Shown in pieces: positions 7,416-63,746 of a stretch of 64,000 nt of DNA. Both the position numbers and the translations under genes were made by a program. Source of the stretch: a virus (Duplodnaviria; Caudoviricetes). How positions within the stretch are numbered: the first letter of the stretch is position 1; each line of letters starts with the position of its first letter. Where the stretch lies: IMG/VR virus record IMGVR_UViG_3300031994_000058, positions 1 to 64,000 of that record; one strand, 5' to 3'. The notes under the pieces are model-generated. The model had not been told where the DNA came from. It saw only the letters and a program-made list of their open reading frames with translations, and made no database searches.

Positions 7416-8054
7416 TTACTTCGCGAAATCGCACGCCTTAATCTTAACAACGAGACGGTTGCCGAGTCGATCAAACAAATCATTTTCTGGTTTAGCTACC
7501 ACACCTTCCATAGGAGCCTTGCCGATTGTACTCATTGGTCTAGCTTTGACATATTCAACCGCTTCTGGTAAAGTCATTATTCCAAGAATAGGTACTGTTT
7601 CCACGCCAAAGCAGGTAGCGATATCTTCCACTGAGTCGCGCTTAATCCATACATCGCCGACCATAACATCGAACATGATAAATGATACATCATCCGGCCG
7701 ATACAGTGAACCATTCTTCTGAATCTTTTTGCCGTATCCTTCGCCATATAATGTAACAGTACAGCTTCCAAATTTCTGTTCGAATAATTCCTCGGCCTCT
7801 AATGTACAAAATGTCGAGTTTAGATAGTTAACCAAGTCGGACGGAATCTGGGCGCGATCGGTTCTACCGGCAAGTTCTACTCTGTGACCATCCCAGTGAA
7901 TACGAATATTGGTACCATCGATCTTTTCTGTGATAATCCACGGAATATTCCTTAGCATTTCTACAGTCTCGTTACGATAATCGCCTTCAATGAGCTTTTT
8001 GGTACCGGTAACGTCGCGGTTAAAAATAGTTTCGATTTTATGATACTCTCTCAT
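7416..8054 (-). CDS. ATP-dependent RNA ligase family (Rnl2-like nucleotidyltransferase domain)
   Basis: Motif I EKIDGTN, motif III LYGE, IIIa FDV, IV EGVV, V KIK. Confidence 0.8.
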   Translation of the reverse strand: MREYHKIETIFNRDVTGTKKLIEGDYRNETVEMLRNIPWIITEKIDGTNIRIHWDGHRVELAGRTDRAQIPSDLVNYLNSTFCTLEAEELFEQKFGSCTVTLYGEGYGKKIQKNGSLYRPDDVSFIMFDVMVGDVWIKRDSVEDIATCFGVETVPILGIMTLPEAVEYVKARPMSTIGKAPMEGVVAKPENDLFDRLGNRLVVKIKACDFAK

Positions 8055-33093: not shown

Positions 33094-33717
33094 TCAATAA
33101 ATGAGATTGATTGTCTTCGCGGTATTACGGCTGAACTTCGAGTATGTAATGCGAACCAACGCACCAGCATACAAAGAACACCATGTTCCACGATCAATGT
33201 TAAATTGACGAAGCTCTCCTGTCGCATCGTTCATAACTGTAACATAACATCTGCACTCTCGACGAGTAATTTTTTCGTTTTCTTTAAGTCCCACATCGAC
33301 AAAAGCAGGCATCGAGATTTCCTGATTTGGACCATAGGTATTTGAACGCTTCAAATTTCGCATAGGAACCCATTTCTTAATCTCGTAATAATACTTGGTT
33401 GCATAGACAGGCTTCTCTGCGTAGGCGGTAAAACCATGCTCGTCCTTGCCAGTAGGAACCTTCTCCATCTCCTTAAACGTCCATTCAGTGCTGATAACTC
33501 TCGCGCCAGACGGAGCAGTCCATCCCGATTCCTTAACCATCTTCAGTTCTGACACTGTGACATTAGTTTCCCATCCAAGATTACGAATCTCACCAGTGAT
33601 TTCGATCGGCTGAGAATCCTTGATGAGATAAGCGAGACCGCCTGCGAGAACTCCGCAGATAGCCGTAGCAACCTTGTGCTCCTTTACAAAGCTTACGATA
33701 TTACCAAATGTACTCAT
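33094..33717 (-). CDS. Membrane-anchored hypothetical protein
   Basis: N-terminal helix VATAICGVLAGGLAYLI; PVYATKYYYEI..W. Confidence 0.6.
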   Translation of the reverse strand: MSTFGNIVSFVKEHKVATAICGVLAGGLAYLIKDSQPIEITGEIRNLGWETNVTVSELKMVKESGWTAPSGARVISTEWTFKEMEKVPTGKDEHGFTAYAEKPVYATKYYYEIKKWVPMRNLKRSNTYGPNQEISMPAFVDVGLKENEKITRRECRCYVTVMNDATGELRQFNIDRGTWCSLYAGALVRITYSKFSRNTAKTINLIY

Positions 33718-33771
33718 AATAACTTCCTCCTTTTAGTCCGTGAGTGTTTCCTACAAAAAGAAAAAAGGAAA

Positions 33772-33875
33772 GGATGACCGAGCGGTCTTCAAAACCGCGT
33801 CTCCCGCCAGATTGACCAGCGGGCGTGTTACTCTTACCATACCATTTACGTCCCTGTCAATTCAGGAAGTCATCC
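33772..33875 (-). ncRNA. 104-nt multi-arm structured RNA with its own promoter motif and U-tract
   Basis: Closing stem GGATGAC/GTCATCC; arms TTCCTG/CAGGGA, CCCGCTGG/CTGGCGGG, GCGGT-TTTGAAG-ACCGC; begins 4 nt after promoter motif 33905; followed by T-rich run; no ORF with RBS. Confidence 0.7.
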
Positions 33876-33900
33876 ATTCCATTAAGGCGGCTGTTTATTT

Positions 33901-33965
33901 TGCGAGTCGTCACTCTCATAGAGAGGGGCGTGTGGTATCGTGTCTGAAATCAGACTTTTTGCGAG
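33901..33965. repeat. About 60-bp double-hairpin element, copy 1 of 4 (others 38272-38335, 40107-40170, deleted copy 42023-42053)
   Basis: GTCGTCACTCTCATAGAGAGGGGCGTGT(G/A)GTATCGTGTCTG(A/G)AATCAGACYTTTTGCGA near-identical; always directly upstream of a TCGCA promoter motif. Confidence 0.9.
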
Positions 33966-42064: not shown

Positions 42065-44569
42065 TTACGCCGTACCAGTCCAGTTGATTGTAAAGTTCGT
42101 AGCTCCCCATCCATTTGCATATCCTGAAATAGCGTTCTCTTTGCGATTGATGTTAAACGTTATACCATCGCAGCCCGCAAACGCGGAAGAGTTAATAGTC
42201 GTCATCGTATTCGGAAGATTAACAGTTACCAAACTTGTACAATTCAGAAATGCGTTGGCGTTAATAGTTCTTAGCACAGGATTAGATTCAGAAGAAGGCG
42301 TAAAGGTTGTCATATTACTGCATCCTTCAAAAGCGTTCGCGTTGATCGTTGTTACCTTAGGCGGTAATATAAAATTGACAAATCCGACACAACCTCTAAA
42401 GCAACCGGTGCCGATAGACGTCCATAATGGTGCCGTTATAGAGGTAAGACTTGCGCAACCGTCAAACATATAAGACGAACCACTCGTTTGTTTAGAAATA
42501 GTTGCCGATTGCAAGGCTGCGCAATTCTCAAACGTACTAGCGCCAATGGACGTCGGCATAGAAAGTGTTATCGATGTAAGACTAGTGCAACCGCTAAAGC
42601 ACTTCTCTCCAACAGTATAAGTTTTTGCGTTTTCAGTAAACGTCGTCAAACCGGTGCATCCAGCGAATGCTTGGATGCCTACTGCCGTTACCGCGGTTGG
42701 TAAAGTGAAAGACGTTAAAGAAACACAATCCTTGAACGCCGTTTTAGCGATAGTCTTTATAGTAGATTGAAGTTCGATTGACGTAAGCGCCGAGCATCCC
42801 TCAAAGCAAGACTCGCCAATAGTTGTGTATTTTTCACCAATGACTGTTGTAGATGGATTCTCAGTGTTAATCGTAACTGTTTGAAGACCGGTACAATGAT
42901 AAAATCCTAATTTTGGCATAGTTGTGCAATTTCGAGGAAGCATGATGCTAGTTAAACTGGTACAATTTTGGCACATTCCCTCGCCCAACGACGTCACTGT
43001 TTTAGCGATTGGTAAATCTTCAAGAGCCGTGCAACCAGAGAAAACATAATCACCTATAGTGGTTAGTTTAACTGTTTGTCCATCTGGAATAACATATTCG
43101 AACTTCTCCATGGCAGAGCATCCCTGAAAAACTGAATCGCCAATCGACGTGACTGTATAAGGAATACGTACCGCATCACCTTGAGATACTACAGCATCTA
43201 TATCGGGGTAGCTGATGTTTTTTAGTTTAGTGCAGTTCTTAAACGTTTCATTGAGAATAGAGGTTATTAATGATGAATAAGTAACGCTGGTGTTACTGTA
43301 ATCGACCATTGATACACTAGTCAAATTAATACATCCGTCAAATACACTAGCCTCCAATCGTTTGGTAGATCCAGTACCGCCAACGATTGTAATATGATCC
43401 AACGCCGTACACCCATAGAATGCGTGATCGCTTGGATATATTACCTTACCAGTTTCAAACGCAATGAGCGATTCACAATTATAGAAACCGGCCTGACCAA
43501 CGACAGTGGGATTTTCTGTAAGAGTTATATCAGTGAGTTTTGAACACCCGCTAAACATATATGCTGACACATTGCCAACAGGAACCGCATCCGTGTTAAA
43601 CTTAGGCATTTTAGCTTCGACCAAATTCTCACATCCCATAAACATTGAGTTGTAGTCAGTTGTTTTGGTACTTGCTAATTGTATATCGTTATTTGCAGGT
43701 TCAAGATTCGTTAAATCGACATACGTCAAAGATGTGCAATTTTTAAAAGACGTTGGATAAATGGATATAACGCCCTCAGGGATGACGAGTCGAGTAATTG
43801 CACAATTCTCAAAAGCGTTATTTCCGATCACATAGATAGACGATGTTATGATATTGCTGACATCGGTAAGGCCTGTACCTTTAAACATATTGTCAGAAAT
43901 GAACCACAAATTTTCCGGCATGTCGACCGTCGTTAATGATTCGCAACCCTCAAACATCGACTCATAGTGCTCCTGTGCATATTCGGCGGGCCACGTAGAG
44001 CTAGCTCCGGAGGTTCTCTCCTGATTTATCTCAGTGACTGTTTTAATGTTTACAGTAGTCGGCAGATCGATCTCAGTAATTGATTTGCAACCTTTGAAAC
44101 AGTGTTTTCCGAATGTAATTTTATTGTCCGGAATCTCGATCTCAAGAAGACTTTCACAATTTAAGAAGGCATCATCCTGGATTTCCATCGTGCCTTCAGG
44201 AATAACTACCGACTCGATAGAAGTAATGCCCTTGAACGCTTCACTGCCGATTACTGTACATTCGGTGGGAATAATCGCACTAATAGTGTTCGTGCTAAGT
44301 CTAAAAGTGGTTGGGTCACTAAGAAATATCGCACCGCTACTGCTTCCGCCTTCTTGTTGAGAAAGCTTGTAAAGAGCGTCGTGAATAGCCATGCGGATGT
44401 CTTTTCCATACGTACTTTCACGAATAGTAGTCAGCTCACCTTTAATTGCCGATCCAGGATACATAAGTTTTACCAGCTTCTCTAAAGCCGAATCAACGTT
44501 ATTTAGGACGTCTTCACCACCAGATTTAGACTTTATAGCCTCAAGCTGAGAACTAATATCAACTGCCAT
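42065..44569 (-). CDS. BspA-type leucine-rich repeat (LRR_5) protein, 834 aa, with tail-fibre-like N-terminal motif
   Basis: Many C..L..I.LP..V..IG..AF..C repeats; N-terminal IRESTYGKDIRMAIHDAL; C-terminal ...GWGA....I.W cap. Confidence 0.9.
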   Translation of the reverse strand: MAVDISSQLEAIKSKSGGEDVLNNVDSALEKLVKLMYPGSAIKGELTTIRESTYGKDIRMAIHDALYKLSQQEGGSSSGAIFLSDPTTFRLSTNTISAIIPTECTVIGSEAFKGITSIESVVIPEGTMEIQDDAFLNCESLLEIEIPDNKITFGKHCFKGCKSITEIDLPTTVNIKTVTEINQERTSGASSTWPAEYAQEHYESMFEGCESLTTVDMPENLWFISDNMFKGTGLTDVSNIITSSIYVIGNNAFENCAITRLVIPEGVISIYPTSFKNCTSLTYVDLTNLEPANNDIQLASTKTTDYNSMFMGCENLVEAKMPKFNTDAVPVGNVSAYMFSGCSKLTDITLTENPTVVGQAGFYNCESLIAFETGKVIYPSDHAFYGCTALDHITIVGGTGSTKRLEASVFDGCINLTSVSMVDYSNTSVTYSSLITSILNETFKNCTKLKNISYPDIDAVVSQGDAVRIPYTVTSIGDSVFQGCSAMEKFEYVIPDGQTVKLTTIGDYVFSGCTALEDLPIAKTVTSLGEGMCQNCTSLTSIMLPRNCTTMPKLGFYHCTGLQTVTINTENPSTTVIGEKYTTIGESCFEGCSALTSIELQSTIKTIAKTAFKDCVSLTSFTLPTAVTAVGIQAFAGCTGLTTFTENAKTYTVGEKCFSGCTSLTSITLSMPTSIGASTFENCAALQSATISKQTSGSSYMFDGCASLTSITAPLWTSIGTGCFRGCVGFVNFILPPKVTTINANAFEGCSNMTTFTPSSESNPVLRTINANAFLNCTSLVTVNLPNTMTTINSSAFAGCDGITFNINRKENAISGYANGWGATNFTINWTGTA

Positions 44570-44589: not shown

Positions 44590-45366
44590 TTATGGATCCC
44601 ACACGACGGTCGCAAATCTAGCGCCCCATGGAGCATAGGAAGAACCTACTACCTGGTCGGCAGACTTGTGAACTACAATCGTATTAATATTAGTACAATT
44701 ATAAAAAGCCTGCTGCTGTATTTCCAAAATAGACGATGGTATCTCTACAGTTCCGCGAATGTTAGAGCAGTTAGCAAAGCAACCGTCCATTAAAGTTTCA
44801 ATACCATCTTCAAACGCGAGCTCTCGAATCATGGAATATTGCAAGCATCCGCCATATATAGTTTTTATATTACCAGGAATGGGACCACCAATATCTTCGA
44901 TATTACCATAGTTCCAAGAAGACGCCGCGTATACACCGGGCTTTATAGCATTTATACTTCTAGGAAAATTTACTTTTTTAAGTAACGGACAACCACTCAT
45001 AAAGCTATTGCCCATATCGGTTATTGCATCACTAACATGACAGGCGAGTACGGTGCTAAATGAAGAATATAGGTTTGCAGTTAGAGCCACAGGTTCAATT
45101 TGTGATCCAAAATATAGCCCTAGTCTTTTGTACCAGGTCCATCTTCTGAGAGCGTTTGACACCTCTGAATGATCTGTAGATGCTAATAAAACCTCAGTAG
45201 GTTCTAACGATCCGTTTAATATCGTGATACTTATTTTAGTCTCATCTATTAACACTGGAGGGTCTACCGGAGTGAATCTTTGCCATAAAAGCTCATTATC
45301 TTTGTAGATCTTCTTTAATGGTATCTGTCCATAATAGATGGATGAGTTATATATCGTCATTATCAA
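44590..45366 (-). CDS. BspA-type LRR protein, 258 aa
   Basis: N-terminal IYYGQIPLKKIYKDNELLW motif; short LRR array; APWGARFATVVW cap. Confidence 0.8.
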   Translation of the reverse strand: MIMTIYNSSIYYGQIPLKKIYKDNELLWQRFTPVDPPVLIDETKISITILNGSLEPTEVLLASTDHSEVSNALRRWTWYKRLGLYFGSQIEPVALTANLYSSFSTVLACHVSDAITDMGNSFMSGCPLLKKVNFPRSINAIKPGVYAASSWNYGNIEDIGGPIPGNIKTIYGGCLQYSMIRELAFEDGIETLMDGCFANCSNIRGTVEIPSSILEIQQQAFYNCTNINTIVVHKSADQVVGSSYAPWGARFATVVWDP

Positions 45367-47102
45367 TTACCTCCAAGCCATCTAATCTCGCAATCTTCTG
45401 GCAAATATGCTGTATAGGCTTTCGGCGTCCACGGATTTCCATTAGAATCAACTATACTTCCTTCTGTGCGATTTATATTTATTCTTTTTAAAGCCCTACA
45501 ACCGGCGAACACTCTCGGATTGCTTGGATCATCAAAAATTTGTTCAACAGCATTACCTATAGTAACTGATTCTAGTGAACTACAACCATTAAAAGCCCCA
45601 CCGCCAATATATGTCGGGCCATTGGGTATACTGATCGTTTTTAAACTTCTGCAAGATTCGAAAGCCGCTGCTCCGATACTAGCTACGCTGCTAGGAATGG
45701 ATACCGATTCTAATGCAATACAATGTCCGCATACATAGTTGCTAATATCAGTGAGGTGTGGAGGAAAGGCCAGAGAAGTAAGTGATTGACAATTATAAAA
45801 CGCAAACGCCTCTATTGACGTTAGAGACTCCGGAAGAACCAAATTATCTAAAAGCGTACATCCCCAAAATGCATGATCTTTGATGGTTATTAGATTATCA
45901 GACAAGCTGATGGCAGTCATACTTTCACAAGACTCAAACGCTTTTGTTCCGATCGTTTGTACAGAGTTAGGTATGCTTATATAAGGCAATGATGTACACT
46001 CGGCGAACGCTCTCGCTCCTATATCTTTAAATGCTGGTTCATCCTGCAACACCACAGTTGTTAAGGCATAACAATTGTCGAAGCATGCTTCTGGTATTGA
46101 AATCTGATTACCGGGATGAAATACAACGGTTTTTAAATTAGAACACATCATGAACGATCCTATGCCCAAATATGATATACTCGCGAGCTCTATTCGCTCC
46201 AAGGAATAACAATCTCTGAATGTCTCGTTCCCTATATGGGTCACATTTGACAAGTCGATATCTTTAAGCGCCATGCAATATGCAAAAGCGTTATTGTTTA
46301 GATAATATGCATTGTTCAAATCGACAGTAGTTAATCCCTCACATCTATAAAAAGCATTGGACTCTACATCGGTTATTGAATCCGTAAATACAACATCATC
46401 AAGAAGCCTGTCATATTCGAACATATTATACGTTACTCGTGTCATCGATTCTCCGAATGTAACATTAGTCAGGTATTCGTTCCAGCTATATTCGTGTCCC
46501 CTAGTTGATGAGTGAATATATCGATTCGGTATTACCACTTCGCTAAGTTTTGTATTATGAAACGCGGATCTCTCTATGAATAATCCGATATCAGACTCCG
46601 TATACGTAACATATCGAAGTGTACTTCCAGTAAATGCATATTCGCGAATAGCTGTAATTGTACCAGGAACATGAAATGCAAGAATGTTTTTGCAGGTTTG
46701 AAATGTTCTATTAGGAACTTCGGTCACTCCACACTCTTCACCAATCCAAATTCGATACATAATGTTTGGATCATTCTCGTAATACTCATCGAGCTTGGCA
46801 CGGGCTTCGGCGAGCGTCTTACAATAGAAAACATCATCGGTATCCGCATCACCATCCAACATGATTACCGAAATCCAATAATCTTTCCACACCGGTTCTG
46901 TGGGATCATATATACAATATGCAACGTTTTGCTCCTTTACTTCTAAAGCATCATACTCCTCTTGCGTTACAAGTTTTTTCGTGGTTGCTCGAAGTCCATG
47001 GTTGTAAAGAATCCAAAGAGCATCTGAAATAGGTCCTCGAATATCTTTACCATACGTACCTTTGCGAATTTCCCGTCCTTGTCCCTCTATATATACTGCC
47101 AT
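45363..47102 (-). CDS. BspA-type LRR protein, 579 aa
   Basis: IRKGTYGKDIRGPISDAL; TQEEYDAL motif; about 14 LRR_5 repeats. Confidence 0.9.
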   Translation of the reverse strand: MAVYIEGQGREIRKGTYGKDIRGPISDALWILYNHGLRATTKKLVTQEEYDALEVKEQNVAYCIYDPTEPVWKDYWISVIMLDGDADTDDVFYCKTLAEARAKLDEYYENDPNIMYRIWIGEECGVTEVPNRTFQTCKNILAFHVPGTITAIREYAFTGSTLRYVTYTESDIGLFIERSAFHNTKLSEVVIPNRYIHSSTRGHEYSWNEYLTNVTFGESMTRVTYNMFEYDRLLDDVVFTDSITDVESNAFYRCEGLTTVDLNNAYYLNNNAFAYCMALKDIDLSNVTHIGNETFRDCYSLERIELASISYLGIGSFMMCSNLKTVVFHPGNQISIPEACFDNCYALTTVVLQDEPAFKDIGARAFAECTSLPYISIPNSVQTIGTKAFESCESMTAISLSDNLITIKDHAFWGCTLLDNLVLPESLTSIEAFAFYNCQSLTSLAFPPHLTDISNYVCGHCIALESVSIPSSVASIGAAAFESCRSLKTISIPNGPTYIGGGAFNGCSSLESVTIGNAVEQIFDDPSNPRVFAGCRALKRININRTEGSIVDSNGNPWTPKAYTAYLPEDCEIRWLGGN

Positions 47103-62345: not shown

Positions 62346-62698
62346 TAGTCGTTACCTCCTCCCATGAGATACATAAGAATAAAAAGCCAAAGCACGTCCC
62401 GCGAAGAATCAGACTTAAACACATTGGGAATGTTTGTCTCCTCGATTCGGTTTTCAAAGCTGGGGAGATTGTACTTGATGTCGAACGTTGTTGCTCGTGC
62501 GATGAGAACGGACAGATACTTGCCCATTGTGTCGTACTGTTCCTGAAGCAAAGAATACTCGGGTGAATCCTCACCGATTTTCTTCATATGCTTCTCGAGA
62601 CCATACATACGAAGATCACACTGTTCGATCTCTGCGACGAGCCGCTCCTTCCAGTCGTCTGACATCATTCCGTCAATGGTGTCTCTTAAAGTCTTCAT
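62345..62698 (-). CDS. Small helical phage protein (crAss001_48-like)
   Basis: DWKERLVAEIEQ...LL.EQ...M..YL.VL..RA pattern. Confidence 0.55.
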   Translation of the reverse strand: MKTLRDTIDGMMSDDWKERLVAEIEQCDLRMYGLEKHMKKIGEDSPEYSLLQEQYDTMGKYLSVLIARATTFDIKYNLPSFENRIEETNIPNVFKSDSSRDVLWLFILMYLMGGGND

Positions 62699-63746
62699 AT
62701 GAAATTCCTCCTTTTATTATAGCTTTTAAAAGCCTTATAAATTTTAGTTTTAGATATCGATTTTTGAGTTCTCTTGTGGTGGTGATAGTTAATAATGACA
62801 ATCGTGAAAGCATTCCGGACGCCATCTTAGAGGTCAGAACTAAGTTATTACGGATCCTGGAATGAAGAGATCTGTACTTTCTTTTAAGACGTAATAGAAC
62901 CGGTTTTCGAAGCATAAATCTGGTCCCTTGATACCGGTAACCAAGAGCCGATACGGGACGAGATGATACTTTGTACACTTGCCAGTTAGGTTTTAACCGT
63001 AAACAAATGCCGTTTAAGTAATCGGATATGGCCCGAACTACTTTATGGAGCATTCTCTTATTAGAATGAAAAAGTGTTAAATTGTCCATATAACGAAGAT
63101 AATGCGGTACATGAAGAACCTCACGAATGTAATGATCGAGAGGTTGAAGAAGGACATTCGCGAACCATTGACTATGGAATGCGCCTATCATTACACCATC
63201 CTGTATTGATATTTTTATCAATTTCATCACTCGCTCATCATTTATAAGACTTCGAAATCGACTTTCTATAATTGATGGTAAAATGGACTCATAAAAATGA
63301 TGAATGTCGAGTTCTGCACAATATTTGGTATGCTTTGGATCATTTTTCAGCCATTTACGAATACCAGTTTGTCCGCGTTTTAGACCTCGACCTTTAATCG
63401 AACCGCAGCACCAATAGTCCATTCCTCGCATCATTACGGGCATCAAAGCCTGTACAAGCATATGGTGGATGTACTGGTCGGGCCATAATTTAGGCTCTGT
63501 TATAGTTCGAATCTTCTTGGCGTTGTGGTCATATCGCCTAGTGACTTTTGGTCTACTTGGCTTAAATCCCTTTATTACGATGTTTCGTAACTCTCTAACA
63601 CGCTCTTCTAATGTAGCTTCTATCCATATCACGGTTCGATTAAGACCCTTACGTGTGCGCCTGTGGGATTTGTTTACGTCTCTAATCGCTTGTTTAATGT
63701 TGTCATCGCTAATTAATATGGGAAAGAGATTCTTTACTCTCTTCAT
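62673..63746 (-). CDS. DGR-type reverse transcriptase
   Basis: 357 aa; LDIHHFYESI; GVMIGAFHSQWFAN (DGR-like motif 4); YLRYMDNL; LGY; no maturase/endonuclease domain; TR directly upstream. Confidence 0.9.
   Translation of the reverse strand: MKRVKNLFPILISDDNIKQAIRDVNKSHRRTRKGLNRTVIWIEATLEERVRELRNIVIKGFKPSRPKVTRRYDHNAKKIRTITEPKLWPDQYIHHMLVQALMPVMMRGMDYWCCGSIKGRGLKRGQTGIRKWLKNDPKHTKYCAELDIHHFYESILPSIIESRFRSLINDERVMKLIKISIQDGVMIGAFHSQWFANVLLQPLDHYIREVLHVPHYLRYMDNLTLFHSNKRMLHKVVRAISDYLNGICLRLKPNWQVYKVSSRPVSALGYRYQGTRFMLRKPVLLRLKRKYRSLHSRIRNNLVLTSKMASGMLSRLSLLTITTTRELKNRYLKLKFIRLLKAIIKGGISYEDFKRHH

Follow-up and report, generated by a model that had tools for sequence, protein, structure and literature searches.

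The window, as the whole stretch of DNA analysed is called here, is the first 64 kb of an IMG/VR phage record of 86,687 bp that is estimated to be complete; the source is an uncultured gut-type phage. Its GC content is 42% and the GC skew is negative along the whole window. The minus strand carries the examined ORFs and 19 of 20 promoter motifs, and ribosome binding sites (RBSs) are strong and of the AAGGAGG type. A 250-bp gap separating two minus-strand ORFs (33968-34201 and 33094-33717) contains a gene for a tRNA-like RNA, of which this genome has one copy. The locus is organised as follows (window positions).

33875..33772, minus strand: tRNA-like RNA gene
33879..33905, minus strand: promoter TCGCA-N16-TAATGG, the final GG being the opening bases of the closing helix
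33876..33880, minus strand: 5' leader GGAAU, pairing with the trailer UUUCC; this extension is paired and covaries across all lineages
33869..33875, minus strand: closing-stem 5' strand GGAUGAC, acceptor-like; an eighth pair, U.G, is formed at 33868/33779
33853..33866, minus strand: extra 5' hairpin CCUG-AAUUGA-CAGG, without tRNA counterpart
33843..33852, minus strand: linker GACGUAAAUG, holding an invariant AU (columns 59-60 of alignment A7) whose U is the equivalent of tRNA U8 in the register of the real-tRNA alignment
33825..33842, minus strand: D-arm-like hairpin with an AUG bulge and the 7-nt loop AAGAGUA (pairs 34-51, 35-50, 39-49 and 40-48 in element numbering)
33803..33823, minus strand: long hairpin CCCGCUGG-UCAAU-CUGGCGGG, read as a former anticodon arm with a non-decoding loop
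33799..33802, minus strand: variable-loop equivalent AGAC, consensus A-R-R-C (A7 columns 112-115)
33782..33798, minus strand: T arm GCGGU-UUUGAAG-ACCGC, invariant in 5 lineages and altered on both sides in L049
33772..33781, minus strand: linker UCG and closing-stem 3' strand GUCAUCC, placed by fold and covariation
33755..33771, minus strand: trailer UUUCC and U tract U6-C-U5 (33766-33755), an intrinsic-terminator-like layout
33715..33730, minus strand: GGAGG RBS and ATG of the next gene (ORF 33094-33717, a predicted protein of 207 aa)

As a single sequence, 33875..33772 (minus strand) folds at -39.3 kcal/mol (z -3.15) into a closing stem of 7-8 bp, the hairpin CCUG-AAUUGA-CAGG, an 8-bp hairpin and the arm GCGGU-UUUGAAG-ACCGC. 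When 5 nt were added per side, GGAAU paired with UUUCC with one U.U mismatch, the z-score became -4.13 and none of 200 shuffles was as stable. The window and L021, but not all lineages, show a break in the helix at 7 bp from the junction, so that no claim is made about an acceptor/discriminator boundary.

Copies of the element were found in about seven phage lineages. Close relatives were retrieved via the downstream protein and distant ones via contigs encoding homologs of a nearby DUF6353 protein, which is 25-58% identical among the phages carrying a copy. In one close relative the element differs by 8 substitutions, 6 in the middle part and 2 forming a compensatory pair in the long hairpin. 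A covariance model built solely from L021, L022 and L027 detected the copy of the window with 55.6 bits (E about 3e-11) and new lineages as well. Model R2 matches L028/L039/L048, L040/L041, L050 and L049; L048, L050 and L049 were gained with a second model. Among relatives there is hardly any variation in the loops and the T arm, and the flanks are unalignable. No DNA match to the element was found in GenBank phages, the nearest protein relatives there being just 31% identical, and scans of IMG/VR, JGI metagenomes and GTDB genomes gave no new member, their matches being either the relative found before or chance ones that the model rejected. In the near-identical phage L018 an identical element is followed by an extra 63-aa gene ahead of the 207-aa gene, with leader and RBS duplicated, and in L019 (1-320) there is no RNA at this site and the upstream gene is different. 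This insertion and this absence indicate that the element is a module independent of its neighbours, and its lack in a relative as close as L019 that it is dispensable or mobile. The inserted gene of L018 (1675-1866) is probably HTH-like, judged by eye.

Standard pairs fill 94.9% of the pair cells over nine distinct sequences, compared to 36-46% with partners slid, and both sides have changed in 24 of 34 pairs compared to 7-10 in the slid controls; none of 500 shuffles matches the observed values, and these counts are biased toward the model's structure because the alignment was fitted to it. Covariation is strong in an alignment of seven sequences as well. An independent check comes from single-sequence MFE folds, which give the same architecture in 7 of 8 copies with z from -2.4 to -8.0. 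Changes on both sides are spread over the helices: 9 of 13 pairs in the closing helix, where the leader-trailer extension covaries in A7 columns 2-5 with 145-148; 3 of 4 pairs in the extra hairpin, in which 100% of cells pair and which L050 lacks and L049 has in enlarged form; and 6 of 7 pairs in the long hairpin. In the D arm, G39-C49 is replaced by A-U in L002; the consensus of its loop in relatives is the 7-nt AANRGUA, and the window copy bears a 3-nt bulge. The T-loop reads UUCGAAG, a canonical T-loop, in L028, L040 and L050 and UUGGAAG in L049.

Covariation extends to a tertiary contact. Position 4 of the D-loop and position 3 of the T-loop are A-U in five sequences, G-C in three and C-G in one, a pattern equalled by 1 of 500 shuffles; in the window the pair is formed by D-loop A44 (33832) and T-loop U85 (33791). 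Such a covarying D-loop:T-loop pair, like G19-C56 of tRNA, argues for a tRNA-like elbow and an L-shaped fold. Position 2 of the extra-hairpin loop was considered as the elbow partner and also changes with the T-loop, but this hairpin is missing in L050, and D-loop position 4 is preferred because it shows three Watson-Crick pair types. The strand was settled by G.U pairs: read on the opposite strand, the 20 that the gene strand has would all be mismatches, so that the functional strand is the minus strand. Combined, these results confirm that the fold is that of a real, conserved RNA gene on the minus strand.

The earlier note had described at 33772-33875 a multi-arm small RNA with three hairpins, a large purine-rich loop, a U tract and a last arm resembling a T arm. 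The fold is as described and its architecture is shared by relatives; the U6-C-U5 tract does follow the closing helix, and the T-arm character of the last arm is borne out by its invariant or compensated stem and by the covarying pair with the D-loop. The three hairpins also stand, but the purine-rich loop is not unstructured, being the D-arm-like hairpin. Covariation in a model built from relatives, proposed there as a check, turned out to be strong. No RNA family had been recognised, and none was found in Rfam for the element on either strand, at gathering thresholds or at E<=10, nor for the L028 copy at E<=10.

The promoter motif that had been read before the RNA is real and specific, TCGCA-N16-TWATRG occurring 20 times in the window compared to 0.15 expected, with 19 of the 20 copies on the minus strand. 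The longer consensus is TCGCAAA..ACA..TWATAG, and its copies lie at 1904-42027 (minus strand), only in the region of small genes. The copy at 33905-33879 stops 3 nt 5' of the stem of the RNA and is alone in having a long leader (146 nt); the remaining copies reach an RBS within 0-46 nt, and 17 of the 20 promoters are without any tRNA-like element. Every homolog in other phages is preceded by the same TCGCA-type promoter. Given that some RBSs start 1-2 nt past the motif and that the extension of the helix covaries, the motif's end is the probable start of transcription, and initiation at the final G of the promoter, as in T7-type promoters, seems likely. No gene for a T7-like RNA polymerase was detected in this genome, in a search for which no control genome was matched for that family, and none for sigma70 region 4, a CCA-adding enzyme or TROVE. 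A small sigma70_r4 protein is encoded by the relatives L028 and L039. Between the upstream stop codon and the promoter of the RNA lies a double-hairpin element of ~60 bp (33901-33960, minus strand), the first hairpin of which is GUCUG-AUUU-CAGAC; it is missing at the same place in L002.

Comparison with tRNAs accounts for most of the arms. Model R2 matches real tRNA-like genes of related phages (26.6 and 22.8 bits) with D arm, anticodon arm, variable loop and T arm in register, the long hairpin being aligned to the anticodon arm and the extra 5' hairpin finding no partner. The Rfam tRNA model places the L028 copy in the same register, with 16 bits against a threshold of 29. Judged from these alignments, the RNA is a tRNA derivative that has kept a D arm, a degenerate anticodon arm, a variable loop and a T arm, and into which the first hairpin was inserted. 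A type II tRNA, in which the long hairpin would be the variable arm, was considered and dropped because the real tRNAs and the Rfam model both place the long hairpin opposite the anticodon arm and the middle one opposite the D arm.

Several features set the RNA apart from functional tRNAs. The D arm is tied to the T-loop arm by a tertiary pair, as in a functional tRNA, but an anticodon loop of 7 nt that bears U33 and a conserved anticodon is lacking: the former anticodon loop has 3, 4, 5, 6 or 9 nt among relatives and is unconserved, without the conserved U33, and the RNA therefore cannot decode. The geometry of the junction also differs. Between the T stem and the 3' strand of the closing stem there are 3 nt, where in tRNA a 7-bp acceptor stem is stacked directly on the T stem, and 8-25 nt plus a hairpin separate its 5' strand from the D arm, compared to a 2-nt connector in tRNA; with linkers departing in this way, recognition by RNase P or RNase Z is not assured. 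CCA is not encoded and the trailer is U-rich. With default settings ARAGORN did not call the element as a tRNA, and with relaxed settings it gave a poor, mis-registered call on it among 36 mostly spurious calls.

Non-coding RNAs with tRNA-like parts are already known, among them tRNA-derived Y RNAs, t-elements and the tRNA-like domain of tmRNA. With tRNA itself (RF00005) the RNA shares an acceptor-like helix closing a multi-arm junction, equivalents of U8, A14 and A21, a D arm whose loop has 7 nt, a variable loop of 4 nt, a T arm of 5 bp capped by the T-loop UUYGAAG, and the covarying Watson-Crick D-loop:T-loop pair resembling G19-C56. Unlike tRNA, it has an extra hairpin and a linker of 8-9 nt between the acceptor strand and U8, a T stem lying 3 nt off the acceptor strand, and an acceptor helix of 12-13 bp obtained through leader-trailer pairing. 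RNA C and D of T4 and the small RNAs of T5 are stable phage RNAs of ~100-140 nt with tRNA-like features, and they sit within clusters of working tRNA genes of phages of Gram-negative hosts. The present RNA resembles them, by description, in being phage-encoded, of similar size and tRNA-like.

Plant-mitochondrial t-elements are non-canonical tRNA-like structures with a conserved T arm, and the one at cox1 is cut by RNase Z and persists as RNA (PMC1920247). The phage element likewise is a non-canonical, non-decoding cloverleaf with a conserved T arm, located beside an mRNA in its 5' leader. Unlike t-elements, which belong to another biological system, it has an adjacent promoter of its own, a terminator-like U tract and, in some phages, a separate promoter thereafter, and its cleavage is a prediction. 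YrlA is a non-coding RNA of ~100 nt, found also in phages, in which a helix of the 5' and 3' ends is combined with a tRNA-like domain of D and T arms; in M. smegmatis it is cut by RNase P and receives CCA, and its gene adjoins the Ro60/Rsr gene, Rsr binding the motif GNCGAAN0-1G near the YrlA 5' end (PMC4201824). The present RNA has about the same length (100 nt), an end helix and a tRNA-like D/T domain. It differs in that the sequence of its terminal helix varies freely and in that no Rfam Y RNA family matches; no TROVE gene (PF05731) was detected in the 86.7-kb record, estimated complete, in a search that detected the positive controls, and the motif GNCGAAN0-1G is absent from the 5' strands of every copy. 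An assignment to YrlA-type Y RNAs is ruled out by the lack of a TROVE gene and of the Rsr motif together with the unconserved sequence of the terminal helix. A family combining this five-arm anatomy with promoter-to-terminator packaging is absent from Rfam 15, and no description of one was found in the literature searched.

The layout of the locus bears on whether the RNA is an independent unit. A stable helix (12-13 bp) followed by a tract of 5-8 U, as in intrinsic terminators, is present in 9 of 9 distinct copies; a simple terminator scanner is silent here because the "loop" of this hairpin is a multi-arm body of 90 nt. The 207-aa gene is not separated from the RNA by any promoter motif, and the same holds in most relatives; as the next gene lacks a promoter of its own, the RNA is also its 5' leader, and a purely cis-acting role would explain this arrangement. 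In L028/L039 and L049, however, a second promoter lies downstream of the U tract, so that in these phages the RNA is a stand-alone unit. The proteins encoded downstream in the window, L021 and L022 have no detectable similarity, and the element is thus not a gene-specific leader. The description of the RNA as stand-alone in the earlier note therefore holds by DNA layout in L028/L039 and L049, but not in the window, where the next gene needs read-through. The layout, in which a promoter is followed by a helix of the first and last bases and by a U tract, predicts a short discrete transcript plus some read-through.

Two further tRNA-like elements lie in neighbouring cassettes. The gene at 34943-35013 (minus strand; flanks 34923-35021) scores 50.9 bits with the Rfam tRNA model and has an anticodon loop of 6 nt, UGAAAC. 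Its acceptor helix reaches ~14 bp through leader-trailer pairing, with a U tract after it and a TCGCA-N16-TAGTAG promoter before it. Its homologs have 6-nt loops (UAAAAC, UUAAAC, UGAAAU) or 4-nt loops (GCGA, a tetraloop, in L027 and UUAU in L045), and with such loops this second tRNA-like family is probably non-decoding as well. The other element is an acceptor/T-arm minihelix at 35946-36003 (minus strand), with a stem of ~13 bp and the arm GUGGG-UUCAAAU-CCCAC (z -4.9). It lies between the same promoter variant (TCGCA-N16-TAGTAG) and a U tract. In L021, L023, L028 and L045 its position, upstream of the DUF6353 gene, is taken by a full tRNA-like gene, and the minihelix looks like a deletion derivative. 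The occurrence of a crippled tRNA and a minihelix in neighbouring cassettes supports selection on shape and not on decoding.

The explanation that we favour, tentatively and at somewhat less than even odds, is that the RNA is a non-decoding tRNA mimic, recognised by host tRNA enzymes and acting in trans on a tRNA-binding factor. Transcription of the minus strand would begin at the RNA's own phage promoter, the first five transcribed bases would pair with the bases preceding the U tract, and the product would be a discrete RNA of ~115-125 nt, with some read-through into the next gene. Its body would keep the parts of the L shape, namely the equivalents of U8, A14 and A21, the D arm, the 4-nt variable loop, the T arm and the elbow pair, the anticodon loop having presumably decayed and a hairpin having been inserted past the acceptor strand. 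RNase P, RNase Z, the CCA-adding enzyme and T-loop modifiers of the host, which read the tRNA body and not the anticodon, would recognise such an RNA and would probably process it by trimming. Its effect would come from the stable product, by which some tRNA-binding factor would be occupied or diverted. Readers of the tRNA body use the very parts that are conserved, namely an acceptor-like helix, T arm and elbow.

A cis-acting role like that of plant-mitochondrial t-elements ranks close behind the trans-acting mimic and is nearly as likely, at perhaps one chance in three. The RNA would then be purely a module for punctuation or attenuation, its tRNA shape directing a host RNase P/RNase Z cut that fixes the 5' end of the downstream mRNA and its helix and U tract terminating a share of the transcripts, and the released RNA would be without a job. 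This would account for the constant position of the RNA between promoter and gene, for the U tract that always follows, and for the missing promoter before the next gene in the window and most relatives. It would also suit the neighbouring cassettes, where the same position is held by a crippled tRNA and by a bare acceptor/T-arm minihelix. An acceptor/T-arm minihelix is the minimal substrate of RNase P/RNase Z-type enzymes. There is a precedent in the t-element upstream of cox1, which directs RNase Z to form the mRNA 5' end (PMC1920247). Such a role fits less well with the 17 of 20 window promoters that do without such an element and with the new promoter of L028/L039 and L049, which makes the downstream gene independent of processing. 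Moreover, a minihelix would suffice for cutting, whereas the D arm, the anticodon stem, the tertiary pair and the extra hairpin have all been kept.

A more specific proposal, which we regard as doubtful, is that the RNA, together with the neighbouring crippled tRNA and minihelix, is a counter-defence decoy or a competitive occupier of RNase P/RNase Z. As a decoy, an early-expressed tRNA body without anticodon would soak up factors that attack or sense tRNAs via the acceptor end or the elbow, candidates being toxins that modify tRNA 3' ends or nucleases that recognise the tRNA body. This would be an anti-defence principle based on RNA only, unlike that of nuclease-resistant decoding tRNAs.

The remaining explanations are much weaker. 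The degenerate anticodon loop of variable length, the lack of the RNA in L019 and a score under tRNA detection thresholds would all suit a decaying, functionless tRNA pseudogene. This is very improbable in view of compensatory changes in 24 of 34 pairs and the tertiary covariation, maintained across phages whose DUF6353 proteins are 25-58% identical, and of near-invariant loops and T arm beside flanks that cannot be aligned. We give equally little credence to a riboswitch or protein-binding leader controlling the 207-aa gene: the RNA does have a 5' UTR position, a closing helix abutting the U tract and a purine-rich junction, but the downstream genes of the window, L021 and L022 lack detectable similarity, a gene is inserted in between in L018, a promoter intervenes in some lineages, and no anti-terminator (alternative) fold is evident. 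Least credible of all, and rejected by the G.U test and the variable "anticodon", is a functional plus strand that would be left over from a tRNA(UCA) or suppressor gene: the T-arm 17-mer, when reverse-complemented, is exactly GCGGU-CUUCAAA-ACCGC, the anticodon arm of many phage tRNA(UCA) genes, and 7 of 13 other IMG/VR matches to it are opposite-strand anticodon arms of tRNA(UCA), but all 20 G.U pairs turn into A.C mismatches, the loop is UUCGAAG in L028, L040 and L050 and UUGGAAG in L049 so that the supposed anticodon is unconserved, the minus strand is where the promoter, the U tract and all genes lie, and Rfam gives no tRNA match on either strand. Since T-loops resemble reversed anticodon loops, and given the G.U test and the variable loop base, the likeness of the 17-mer is judged a coincidence.

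Phage tRNA genes are usually seen as decoders that supply codons or replace tRNAs cut by host nucleases (PMC10264068). The family described here has given up decoding, yet its tRNA core is maintained by purifying selection, a covarying tertiary pair included. Two further anticodon-crippled tRNA-like elements behind the same type of promoter suggest that the tRNA shape itself may be used in early expression or host takeover. As a compact RNA of ~105 nt with natural variants in which single arms are missing or enlarged, it could be used to test mimicry of the tRNA body in bacteria, and the family would close a gap in Rfam.

Other RNA-related features were noted in these phages. An RNA ligase gene (PF09414, 69 bits) lies at 7440-7943 (minus strand), 26 kb from the RNA, and L022 and L027 encode an RNA ligase that lies ~2 kb downstream of the tRNA-like RNA in each; such a ligase may be linked to RNA repair or to the tRNA-like elements. 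In the region 62673-63838 (minus strand), an RT-18 RNA (RF03021, 59.1 bits; 63758-63838) lies directly 5' of a gene for a 357-aa reverse transcriptase (PF00078). Large BspA-type LRR_5 proteins are encoded at 42065-44569 and 45363-47102 and could be diversity-generating targets.
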